64,000 bases of DNA from Escherichia coli (GCF_003334785.1 NZ_QOWV01000012.1), one strand, 5' to 3'; positions 59,105 through 61,830 are shown, counted from the stretch's first letter. Notes: generated by a model from the letters alone, not told the origin. Numbers and translations are program-made.

Positions 59105-60391
59105 ATGAAACTCTACAATCTGAAAGATCACAACGAGCAGGTCAGCTTTGCGCAAGCCGTAACCCAGGGGTTGGGCAAAAATCAGGGGCTGTTTTTTCCG
59201 CATGACCTGCCGGAATTCAGCCTGACTGAAATTGATGAGATGCTGAAGCTGGATTTTGTCACCCGCAGTGCGAAGATCCTCTCGGCGTTTATTGGTGATG
59301 AAATCCCGCAGGAAATCCTGGAAGAGCGCGTGCGCGCGGCGTTTGCCTTCCCGGCTCCGGTCGCCAATGTTGAAAGCGATGTCGGTTGTCTGGAATTGTT
59401 CCACGGGCCAACGCTGGCATTTAAAGATTTCGGCGGTCGCTTTATGGCACAAATGCTGACCCATATTGCGGGTGATAAGCCAGTGACCATTCTGACCGCG
59501 ACCTCCGGTGATACCGGAGCGGCAGTGGCTCATGCTTTCTACGGTTTGCCGAATGTGAAAGTGGTTATCCTCTATCCACGAGGCAAAATCAGTCCACTGC
59601 AAGAAAAACTGTTCTGTACATTGGGCGGCAATATCGAAACTGTTGCCATCGACGGCGATTTCGATGCCTGTCAGGCGCTGGTGAAGCAGGCGTTTGATGA
59701 TGAAGAACTGAAAGTGGCGCTGGGGTTAAACTCAGCTAACTCGATTAACATCAGCCGTTTGCTGGCGCAGATTTGCTACTACTTTGAAGCTGTTGCGCAG
59801 CTGCCGCAGGAGGCGCGCAACCAGCTGGTTGTTTCGGTACCAAGCGGAAACTTCGGCGATTTGACGGCGGGTCTGCTGGCGAAGTCACTCGGTCTGCCGG
59901 TGAAACGTTTTATTGCTGCGACCAACGTGAACGATACCGTGCCACGTTTCCTGCACGACGGTCAGTGGTCCCCCAAAGCGACTCAGGCGACGTTATCCAA
60001 CGCGATGGACGTGAGTCAGCCGAACAACTGGCCGCGTGTGGAAGAGTTGTTCCGCCGCAAAATCTGGCAACTGAAAGAGCTGGGTTATGCAGCCGTGGAT
60101 GATGAAACCACGCAACAGACAATGCGTGAGTTAAAAGAACTGGGCTACACCTCGGAGCCGCACGCTGCCGTAGCGTATCGTGCGCTGCGTGACCAGTTGA
60201 ATCCAGGCGAATATGGCTTGTTCCTCGGCACCGCGCATCCGGCGAAATTTAAAGAGAGCGTGGAAGCGATTCTCGGTGAAACGTTGGATCTGCCAAAAGA
60301 GCTGGCAGAACGTGCTGATTTACCCTTGCTTTCACATAATCTGCCCGCCGATTTTGCTGCGTTGCGTAAATTGATGATGAATCATCAGTAA
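59105..60391 (+). CDS. thrC: threonine synthase
   Basis: 428-aa ORF MKLYNLKDHNEQVSFAQAVTQGLGKNQGLFFP..., PLP lysine motif (TLAFKDFG). Confidence 0.98.
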   Translation: MKLYNLKDHNEQVSFAQAVTQGLGKNQGLFFPHDLPEFSLTEIDEMLKLDFVTRSAKILSAFIGDEIPQEILEERVRAAFAFPAPVANVESDVGCLELFHGPTLAFKDFGGRFMAQMLTHIAGDKPVTILTATSGDTGAAVAHAFYGLPNVKVVILYPRGKISPLQEKLFCTLGGNIETVAIDGDFDACQALVKQAFDDEELKVALGLNSANSINISRLLAQICYYFEAVAQLPQEARNQLVVSVPSGNFGDLTAGLLAKSLGLPVKRFIAATNVNDTVPRFLHDGQWSPKATQATLSNAMDVSQPNNWPRVEELFRRKIWQLKELGYAAVDDETTQQTMRELKELGYTSEPHAAVAYRALRDQLNPGEYGLFLGTAHPAKFKESVEAILGETLDLPKELAERADLPLLSHNLPADFAALRKLMMNHQ

Positions 60392-60414
60392 CATCTATTC
60401 ATTATCTCAATCAG

Positions 60415-60448
60415 GCCGGGTTTGCTTTTATGCAGCCCGGCTTTTTTG
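60415..60448 (+). terminator. Rho-independent terminator of thr operon
   Basis: Hairpin GCCGGGTTTGCTTTTATGCAGCCCGGC followed by TTTTTTG. Confidence 0.85.
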
Positions 60449-60604
60449 TGAAGAAAATATGGAGAGAAACGACAGGGAAAAAGGAGAAATTCTCAATAAA
60501 TGCGGTAACTTAGAGATTAGGATTGCGGAGAATAACAACCGCCGTTCTCATCGCGTAATCTCCGGATATCGACCCATAACGGGCAATGATAAAAGGAGTA
60601 ACCT

Positions 60605-60901
60605 GTGAAAAAGATGCAATCTATCGTACTCGCACTTTCCCTGGTTCTGGTCGCTCCCATGGCAGCGCAGGCTGCGGAAATTACGTTAGTCCCGTCAGTA
60701 AAATTACAGATAGGCGATCGTGATAATCGCGGTTATTACTGGGATGGCGGTCACTGGCGCGACCACGGCTGGTGGAAACAACATTATGAATGGCGAGGCA
60801 ATCGCTGGCACCCACACGGACCGCCGCCACCGCCGCGTCACCATAAGAAAGCTCATCATGATCATCACGGCGGTCATGGTCCAGGCAAACATCACCGCTA
60901 A
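60605..60901 (+). CDS. yaaX: DUF2502 secreted protein YaaX with His/Pro-rich C-terminal tail
   Basis: 98-aa ORF (GTG start) with signal peptide [23 protein letters not shown]; tail [30 protein letters not shown]. Confidence 0.85.
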
Positions 60902-60933
60902 ATGACAAATGCCGGGTAACAATCCGGCATTCA

Positions 60934-61041
60934 GCGCCTGATGCGACGCTGGCGCGTCTTATCAGGCCTACGTGAATTCTGCAATATATTGAATCTGCAT
61001 GCTTTTGTAGGCCGGATAAGGCGTTCACGCCGCATCCGGCA
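60934..61041. repeat. REP/BIME palindromic elements between yaaX and yaaA
   Basis: GCGCCTGATGCGACGCTGGCGCGTCTTATCAGGCCTAC and GTAGGCCGGATAAGGCGTTCACGCCGCATCCGGCA. Confidence 0.88.
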
Positions 61042-61053
61042 TTGACTGCAAAC

Positions 61054-61830
61054 TTAACGCTGCTCGTAGCGTTTAAACACCAGTTCGCCATTGCTGGAGG
61101 AAGCTTCATCAAAGAAGTAACCTTCGCTATTAAAACCAGTCAGTTGCTCTGGTTTGGTCAGCCGATTTTCAATAATAAAACGACTCATCAGACCGCGTGC
61201 TTTCTTAGCGTAGAAGCTGATTATCTTAAATTTGCCGTTCTTCTCATCGAGGAACACCGGCTTGATAATCTCGGCATTCAATTTCTTCGGCTTCACCGAT
61301 TTAAAATACTCATCTGACGCCAGATTAATCACCACATTATCGCCTTGTGCTGCGAGCGCCTCGTTCAGCTTGTTGGTGATGATATCTCCCCAGAATTGAT
61401 ACAGATCTTTCCCTCGGGCATTCTCAAGACGGATCCCCATTTCCAGACGATAAGGCTGCATTAAATCGAGCGGGCGCAGTACGCCATACAAGCCGGAAAG
61501 CATTCGCAAATGCTGTTGGGCAAAATCGAAATCGTCTTCGCTGAAGGTTTCGGCCTGCAAGCCGGTGTAGACATCACCTTTAAACGCCAGAATCGCCTGG
61601 CGGGCATTCTCCGGCGTGAAATCTGGCTGCCAGTCATGAAAGCGAGCGGCGTTGATACCCGCCAGTTTGTCGCTGATGCGCATCAGCGTGCTAATCTGCG
61701 GAGGCGTCAGTTTCCGCGCTTCATGGATCAACTGCTGGGAATTGTCTAACAGCTCCGGCAGCGTATAGCGCGTGGTGGTCAACGGGCTTTGGTAATCAAG
61801 CGTTTTCGCAGGTGAAATAAGAATCAGCAT
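61054..61830 (-). CDS. yaaA: peroxide stress protein YaaA (DUF328)
   Basis: 258-aa [36 protein letters not shown]...; recognised YaaA. Confidence 0.95.

Follow-up and report, generated by a model that had tools for sequence, protein, structure and literature searches.

Histidine-rich metal-binding segments of bacterial proteins

UreE, HypB, SlyD and Hpn carry C-terminal disordered His-rich runs on a folded domain. Each of these tails takes up several metal ions with little selectivity, and they are often dispensable and variable between species. These proteins handle Ni or Zn in the cytoplasm and are tied to the maturation of urease or hydrogenase, whereas YaaX of Escherichia coli, the small protein with a His-rich C-terminal tail analysed here, is predicted to be exported and is unrelated to them in sequence. 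SilE and PcoE, which act as a 'molecular sponge', are small, Sec-exported, periplasmic and disordered proteins with many weak metal sites (PMC5008109), a layout that YaaX resembles. SilE uses HxxM/MxxH motifs to bind Ag and Cu, its gene belongs to a metal-resistance operon and its expression is induced by metal, whereas mature YaaX contains no Met residue and includes a folded domain, and the solitary yaaX gene is under Rcs regulation. Pfam and NCBIfam detect no SilE/PcoE family profile in YaaX, and the HxxM/MxxH arrangement is absent from it.

Flexible periplasmic clusters of His, with or without Asp, are also found in the His/Asp loop of ZnuA and the N-terminal His stretch of ZinT, both of which serve periplasmic Zn capture, and the tails of YaaX orthologues, such as HDDRHDHHDNDHH, are very near the ZnuA loop DDDDHDHAEKSDEDHHHGD in composition (PMC3872050). 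The E. coli ZnuA loop has 7 His and 8 Asp residues in 30 residues, but it forms an accessory part of a substrate-binding protein of 310 aa, which Zur controls, whereas YaaX is only 98 aa long and has no ZnuA-type cluster A-1 domain of about 300 aa. Since the alignment between the tail and the ZnuA loop is obtained only without composition correction and vanishes with composition-corrected scoring, the likeness is an analogy and not homology. PA4063 of Pseudomonas aeruginosa is another small periplasmic protein, the disordered His-rich loops of which bind Zn with micromolar affinity (PMC8561739); it differs from YaaX in having a ferredoxin-like fold and in being induced by Zn starvation, and the two proteins have no similarity in sequence or fold. 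Since the defining features tested for the SilE/PcoE, Spy/CpxP/ZraP and ZnuA families are absent from YaaX, the protein lies outside all of them, although by analogy it may work like SilE/PcoE or ZnuA despite not being a member of either family.

The yaaX locus

The window, which is the whole stretch of 64,000 nucleotides of E. coli DNA that was analysed, contains the end of the thr operon with thrC (59105-60391) upstream of yaaX, and yaaA (61054-61830) and yaaJ, both convergent to yaaX, downstream of it (Table 1). This gene order matches that of E. coli K-12, in which b0005, annotated as 'DUF2502 domain-containing protein YaaX', lies between thrC and yaaA, and the same synteny, with thrC on one side and a convergent yaaA on the other, is found in Enterobacter and two other genera. 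The Pfam profile DUF2502 (PF10697) covers residues 25-96 of YaaX with model positions 1-89 of 90 (E = 1.6e-13, 51.1 bits), and the 661-nt locus carries a yaaX annotation in 5415 of 5426 complete E. coli genomes at a coverage of at least 80%. YaaX is thus a DUF2502 member by profile and motif and, as distinguished from its paralogue YpeC, the yaaX orthologue by synteny, as the first-pass annotation had correctly named it. The yaaX allele in the window is identical to that of O157:H7-type strains. K-12 YaaX differs from it at two tail residues, which are L70 and P84 in K-12, and so the K-12 tail has 9 His residues. PADLOC returns nothing for YaaX or YpeC, and so neither protein has a link to a defence system.

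Since a hairpin followed by a T-run terminates the thr operon upstream of yaaX, the gene probably has its own transcription and is probably transcribed singly. The non-coding stretch from here to the start codon of yaaX (window 60470-60604) shows unusual conservation across genera and includes the conserved blocks CAGGGAAAAAG.AGAAATTC.CAATAAATGCGG and TTAGGATTGC.GAGAATAACA.CC. No match to the RcsAB box (TaAGaatatTCctA) is found near yaaX within 3 mismatches, the sites of RcsB alone being more degenerate, and a search of the plus strand upstream of yaaX finds no sigma-70 consensus. A riboswitch or small RNA has been rejected, the consensus fold being weak (-9 kcal/mol), the covariation term unfavourable and Rfam giving no family upstream of yaaX. 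A perfect 11-nt palindrome, GAGAAATTCTC, lies at 60484-60494 inside the conserved block in E. coli; it is a poor candidate for a regulatory site because the corresponding sequence in other genera, AGAAATTCCCA, is not palindromic. An upstream open reading frame of 49 codons (60459-60608, plus strand) ends in a TGA that overlaps the GTG start of yaaX (GTGA). It has been rejected as a conserved coding element. Other genera do not preserve this frame; there, the sequence ahead of yaaX is instead free of stops in the yaaX frame, as seen in N-terminally extended gene calls (P0036, P0084). The conservation upstream of yaaX is therefore probably non-coding. The AAGGAGT-ACC-[AG]TG sequence is invariant in an alignment of four genera, and the ATG of the three other genera aligns exactly with the E. 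coli GTG.

Table 1. Features of the yaaX region, in window coordinates
Feature	Position	Strand	Basis
thr operon terminator hairpin and T-run, GGCCGGG...CCCGGC then TTTTTT	60412..60448	+	inverted repeat I4
Upstream region with strong conservation across genera, presumed to contain promoter and regulator sites	60470..60593	+	four-genus alignment
Shine-Dalgarno AGGAG, 6 nt 5' of the GTG start	60594..60598	+	read from sequence
yaaX coding sequence, GTG start, 98 codons and TAA	60605..60901	+	ORF list, sequence
Sec-type signal peptide, residues 1-23, predicted cleavage between AQA and AE	60605..60673	+	read by eye
Conserved Trp-rich DUF2502 core, residues 24-71 (48 residues)	60674..60817	+	alignment, AlphaFold2
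His/Pro-rich tail, residues 69-98, modelled as disordered	60809..60898	+	composition, AlphaFold2
Penta-proline run, residues 73-77, CCG CCG CCA CCG CCG; likely linker, ribosome-pausing site	60821..60835	+	sequence
His-rich terminal segment, residues 78-98, ends ...PG..KHH(R)	60836..60898	+	codon listing
yaaX stop codon	60899-60901	+	
REP/BIME element between convergent yaaX and yaaA, pair of REPs	60905..61050	.	inverted repeats I1, I2, I5, I6; Rfam

Export signal and Trp-rich core

The N-terminus of YaaX, read by eye, has two Lys residues in a basic n-region, a 13-residue hydrophobic h-region and an A-x-A cleavage site at -3/-1 (A-Q-A). Pro-18 and Ala-23 of this segment are invariant among 61 homologues, and AlphaFold2 places a helix at residues 4-20. 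YaaX has no Cys residue and so is not a lipoprotein. The export signal read in the first pass is thus borne out, but the word 'secreted' that went with it is better replaced by 'exported to the periplasm', to which the signal peptide points.

The signal peptide is followed by the DUF2502 module IGDRDxxGxYWDGxxWRDxxWW, which is present in YaaX. Over 48 columns, the cores of 37 diverse homologues align with no gap and a mean column identity of 84%. Of these positions, 17 are invariant, five of them Trp, and the YaaX core itself contains 6 Trp and 3 Tyr residues. A Trp/Gly-rich core had been noted before and is indeed present, but the conserved core starts further towards the N-terminus than the stretch quoted at that time. 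In an AlphaFold2 model built on 61 sequences, the pLDDT is 85-93 over residues 31-70 but only 64 over residues 71-80 and about 46 over residues 81-98, which suggests that YaaX has a small domain that is folded and, behind it, a tail that is disordered. A disordered tail beside a confidently modelled core would be the same layout as that of known flexible metal-capturing segments.

Structure searches with the model, including Foldseek against AFDB50, find no structural relatives outside the DUF2502 family, and searches of PDB sequences with the core profile and the mature protein give only chance matches. The AFDB50 matches are all DUF2502 proteins and come from Enterobacteriaceae, Erwiniaceae, Hafniaceae and Yersiniaceae and from one betaproteobacterium, Deefgea. 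One structural match, AFDB entry A0A0B1RBG7 of Pantoea rodasii, is labelled 'Zinc ABC transporter substrate-binding protein'. Since this protein is only 112 aa long, it cannot be a zinc ABC substrate-binding protein, and the label has probably been mis-transferred through low-complexity likeness to the His-rich loop of ZnuA.

Conservation of the histidine-rich tail

The last 30 residues of YaaX consist of 11 His, 7 Pro, 5 Gly, 3 Lys, 2 Arg, 1 Ala and 1 Asp, in agreement with the 11 His residues counted in the first-pass annotation. When all 30-residue stretches in six-frame open reading frames of at least 60 aa are compared, this His content is the single maximum in the window, the runner-up having 8, and the binomial probability of at least 11 His in 30 residues is 3.6e-11 against a background of 2.3% His in the long open reading frames of the window. 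Tandem Repeats Finder detects nothing at 60700-60950, and the His codons of the tail are mixed, with 6 CAT and 5 CAC. Therefore, an origin of the tail as a DNA microsatellite has been ruled out.

A word-seeded search gives 158 homologues, all of them small and nearly all PF10697 members, and those that are named come from Enterobacterales; 94 intact homologues are left after frameshifted and truncated entries have been dropped. Many database entries, including P0009 with 141 member sequences, P0016, P0019 and P0021, are frameshifted in or near the run of five proline codons (window 60720-60905, plus strand). These entries, which may be assembly errors or real alleles, read an alternative frame of the tail, which has a hydrophobic end and a stop codon 4 nt beyond the normal one.

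Among the 94 intact homologues, the median His content of the tail is 30% with a range of 14-45%, and the pooled tails are composed of 29% His, 19% Asp, 15% Arg, 10% Pro and 10% Gly. In a 61-sequence alignment, the mean pairwise identity is 29% in the tail and 78% in the core, and the tail length varies from 20 to 46 residues. Tails outside Escherichia are usually a mixture of His, Asp and Arg, as in RPHDEHRDRDDRHDHRHDDHRPGPDWKHH. Since such proteins with HD-rich tails are encoded in thrC-yaaX-yaaA synteny in other genera, they are true orthologues. The tail often ends in ...RPGP..KHH, RPGP being present in 31 and KHH in 42 of the 94 tails, and the commonest C-terminal ends among 61 homologues are KHH (17) and HHR (7). 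In contrast to these recurrent properties, the E. coli tail has lost nearly all Asp and has a net charge of +4, whereas net charges in the family span -9 to +6 around a median of -1. The conserved properties of the tail are thus His-richness and the C-terminal motif and not Pro-richness or basic charge, the PPPPP run and the basic charge being specific to Escherichia.

YpeC (b2390), the DUF2502 paralogue of E. coli, has a signal peptide and the same 48-residue Trp-rich core as YaaX, and its low-complexity polar tail also ends in a His run, GHGHRH. The YpeC tail differs in being rich in Arg, Asp, Gly and Trp, with only about 15% His and without a Pro run. Runs resembling (HG)n close the sequences of YpeC and of its ypeC-type homologues. 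When a profile limited to the core is searched against 1.84 billion representative proteins, it matches only 108. In distant DUF2502 members, the module IGDRDxRGxYWDGxxWRDxxWW occurs once or twice and precedes low-complexity tails of various kinds, and the His content after the core is at least 15% in 26 of 56 interpretable distant representatives. The other tails are otherwise polar in 17 of the 56, many with 10-14% His, Pro-rich in 4, and end in CPPGQAKKGxC in 9. This Cys-bracketed ending, CPPGQAKKG[RNL]C, replaces the His-rich tail in P0138, P0144, P0173, P0183, P0201, P0202, P0209, P0214 and P0216, and Pfam detects only DUF2502 in one of these proteins. Conservation of the tail among homologues, which the first-pass annotation had proposed as a check, is therefore found for the His-rich composition, in the syntenic orthologues, in YpeC and in the 26 distant members, but not for the sequence or the length.

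That the composition is kept although the sequence is not fits a function dependent on imidazole chemistry. What survives the turnover of the tail sequence is an exported, disordered stretch in which about 30% of the residues are His, mostly with Asp among them, and such a stretch is the hallmark of flexible metal-capturing segments of low selectivity. Among the readings considered, we therefore rank first that the tail binds divalent metals in a weak, multivalent manner with little selectivity; this is our best guess, one that we hold tentatively. Sec export and removal of the signal peptide would leave a mature protein of about 75 residues, in which a compact Trp-rich DUF2502 domain (residues 24-71) would be the folded conserved part and the tail of about 28 residues would be intrinsically disordered and would evolve fast within limits that hold about 30% His. 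The lone gene yaaX is switched on in envelope stress via Rcs and RpoS, and the clustered imidazoles of the tail would buffer or capture periplasmic Zn, Ni, Cu and Co, with the help of Asp in most genera. The proline run of E. coli would be a stiff spacer that also slows translation. The anatomy of the protein, the kept composition of the tail, its predicted disorder and the export signal come from our analysis, and the regulation comes from published work, whereas we infer both metal binding itself and any physiological role of YaaX.

Regulation and gene context

Overproduction of RcsB increases yaaX expression 1.9-fold (PMC2731931), and colicin M induces yaaX with a log2 value of 4.12, yaaX being listed among the Rcs-regulated genes (PMC3599342). 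An inhibitor of LolCDE induces yaaX 8-12-fold, with the note 'RpoS stress induced', and ypeC 42-60-fold (PMC5105897), and ypeC is a target of MarA/SoxS (PMC5684230). In Serratia, a DUF2502 gene shows higher expression in a hyperactive-Rcs mutant, and its promoter has been cloned as an Rcs reporter (PMC8470065). According to these published transcriptomes, yaaX and ypeC belong to the envelope-stress response governed by Rcs and RpoS, and none of them assigns the two genes to a metal regulon. The reported regulation is thus by Rcs, RpoS and, for ypeC, MarA/SoxS, and not by Zur, NikR, CueR, CusR or ZraR (PMC2731931, PMC3599342, PMC5105897, PMC5684230). The sole metal-related mention of yaaX in the literature found is its listing, together with zraP, among differentially expressed genes in cusS mutants and upon silver exposure, in lists that give no direction (PMC10920338). 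Tests of YaaX function are absent from the literature searched, and the papers found to mention yaaX, ypeC or DUF2502 report no metal-binding experiments.

Unlike yaaX, ypeC lies at its own locus, convergent with mntH. Genes of the ypeC type keep a convergent Nramp/mntH neighbour in other Enterobacterales, and the ypeC-Nramp-nupC order is kept in more distant Enterobacterales, in which the other flank differs (L005, L008). Both E. coli DUF2502 paralogues are therefore arranged tail-to-tail, yaaX with yaaA (60605-61830) and ypeC with mntH (K-12, L001:5002-6707), with genes which we take to belong to the OxyR regulon and to metal homeostasis, and this pairing may be coincidence or simple synteny. 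Distant DUF2502 members have unrelated neighbours and no conserved metal operon in the contexts examined, one contig being too short. Since the distant contexts are unrelated and contain no operon, gene context lends the metal idea no real support.

Metal binding is favoured by the extreme, window-unique His content of the tail, the kept composition, the synteny, the His runs of the paralogue and the predicted disorder, and also by the likeness to the ZnuA loop, the periplasmic precedents, the cusS/silver listing and the Nramp neighbour of ypeC. Against it stand the regulation by envelope stress, the lack of a conserved metal operon, the loss of Asp in E. coli with a charge of +4 against -1, and the replacement of the His tail by Pro-rich or CPPGQAKKGxC ends in some members. 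The very fast turnover of the tail and the presence of two alleles in one species also fit weak constraint. The earlier proposal of periplasmic metal (Ni/Zn/Cu) binding therefore keeps its footing in the His composition and the ZnuA-loop likeness but loses some of it to a regulation that belongs to envelope stress and not to a metal regulon.

The same regulation fits a different use of the imidazoles, namely that the tail is a pH-sensitive charge switch, in which His residues with a pKa near 6 would be protonated in an acidified or stressed periplasm, so that the tail would bind or release anionic polymers of the envelope, for example LPS, colanic acid, osmoregulated glucans or peptidoglycan, and the Trp-rich core would dock on a glycan or protein partner. 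The Rcs regulon, in which the family lies, also drives the synthesis of the colanic-acid capsule (PMC2731931, PMC3599342), and yaaX is described as induced in RpoS stress (PMC5105897). His content is what is conserved in the tail, the E. coli tail is already basic, and the core is dense in Trp and Tyr, with nine such residues in 48. Many sugar-binding modules are similarly rich in Trp and Tyr. However, no solved fold, carbohydrate-binding or other, has been found to be similar to the YaaX core, and since the net charge is not conserved among the tails, behaviour as a polycation cannot be the family-wide mechanism. We consider such a switch unlikely, and it would be compatible with metal binding and not exclusive of it. 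Indeed, the readings of the tail weighed here are not all mutually exclusive.

Two tail alleles in E. coli

E. coli has two alleles of the tail, allele A, which is found in the window and in K-12-type strains, and allele B, of the JJ1886 and Nissle 1917 type, which ends in ...YGPPPSPRHNKHNDHRGDHRPGPDKHHR. About 3960 complete genomes carry allele A at an identity of at least 95%, and about 1478 carry allele B. Identities calculated from representative loci are 76.8% between A and B, with 12 gap positions, from codon 69 to the stop codon (60809-60901, compared with L003:710-802 and L004), whereas they are 99.3% at the 3' end of thrC, 99.5% in the intergenic region, 99.0% in codons 1-68 and 99.0% at the 3' end of yaaA. 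The 90-nt segment coding for the tail is therefore a sharply bounded hot spot of within-species divergence, which may reflect relaxed constraint, recombination or selection. Allele B, which has PPPSP in place of PPPPP and occurs in about a quarter of E. coli genomes, has a tail (...HRPGPDKHH) that is nearer to the tails of other genera than that of allele A.

The REP/BIME element downstream of yaaX is absent from allele-B loci, in which about 40 nt separate the stop codons of yaaX and yaaA. In a search of 60905-61050, the Rfam family ES036 scores 38.8 bits against a gathering score of 37.6, and naRNA4 stays below its gathering score, both families being REP-derived.

Such divergence raises the possibility that the tail has no specific ligand and is a hydrophilic low-complexity extension, a solubility tag, a spacer or a product of near-neutral drift, which would wander among codons one nucleotide apart (CAY for His, GAY for Asp, CGN for Arg, AAY for Asn and GGN for Gly). 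Nearly all codons of the tail are of the (C/G)(A/G)Y type, so that His, Asp, Arg, Asn and Gly interconvert by single steps, and the very low sequence identity, the variable length, the 77% identity with gaps between the E. coli alleles against 99.0-99.5% in the flanks, and the quite different tails of some family members are all in line with a passive extension. However, His stays at about 30% in nearly all orthologues and is also enriched in the paralogue, against the 2.3% background, and the reading frame and the terminal ...PG..KHH(R) motif are maintained. The mixture of CAT and CAC without a DNA repeat further argues against simple slippage. A tail without a specific ligand is thus rather improbable.

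Translational pausing and chaperone activity

Runs of three or more Pro residues need EF-P. The five consecutive Pro codons of the window allele (60821-60835) match the requirement for polyproline stalling, and a proline-related ribosome pause in yaaX has been detected by nascent-chain and ribosome profiling (review PMC13410324). It is therefore conceivable that the PPPPP run of E. coli is a translational throttle, at which a stalled ribosome makes the output of YaaX dependent on EF-P, with the His-rich end being secondary. However, PPPP is present in only 7 of the 61 aligned homologues, about a quarter of E. coli genomes have PPPSP instead of PPPPP, and a throttle would be Escherichia-specific and would leave the conserved His content unexplained, making this reading highly unlikely. 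The chaperone-like function that had been offered alongside metal binding, after the manner of Spy, CpxP or ZraP, fits a small periplasmic protein whose gene is induced together with spy when envelope stress activates Rcs (PMC3599342, PMC5105897), but it is hardly credible because the sole Spy match, one of the sub-threshold signal-peptide matches that are all NCBIfam gives for YaaX, covers residues 1-28 with 12.8 bits against a cut-off of 174, Pfam gives DUF2502 only, the AlphaFold2 model lacks the helical hairpin cradle seen in Spy/CpxP, and no structural matches lie outside the DUF2502 family.

Implications for YaaX and the DUF2502 family

Counted along the E. coli K-12 map, yaaX is gene number five, and essentially no E. 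coli genome lacks it. Since the gene and its composition are already in databases, the His-rich feature as such is already known, and the idea that the tail binds metal is reasonable but unproven. What is new here is that His-richness is kept as a composition and not as a sequence, that the Pro-rich and basic character is limited to Escherichia, and that the segment coding for the tail exists as two alleles in E. coli and is a hot spot of divergence within the species.

A wider and distinctly more doubtful proposal is that DUF2502 is an Enterobacterales-centred, Rcs-controlled periplasmic family, the tails of which buffer metals or sense pH when the envelope is damaged, with the tail under diversifying or balancing selection and not drifting. 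Such selection would account for the two E. coli alleles and the sharp bounds of their difference. If this proposal is true, the Rcs envelope-stress response would be linked to periplasmic metal homeostasis. If the tail binds metals, it would provide a periplasmic metal-buffering arm for the Rcs response and a function for the strongly stress-induced orphans yaaX and ypeC.
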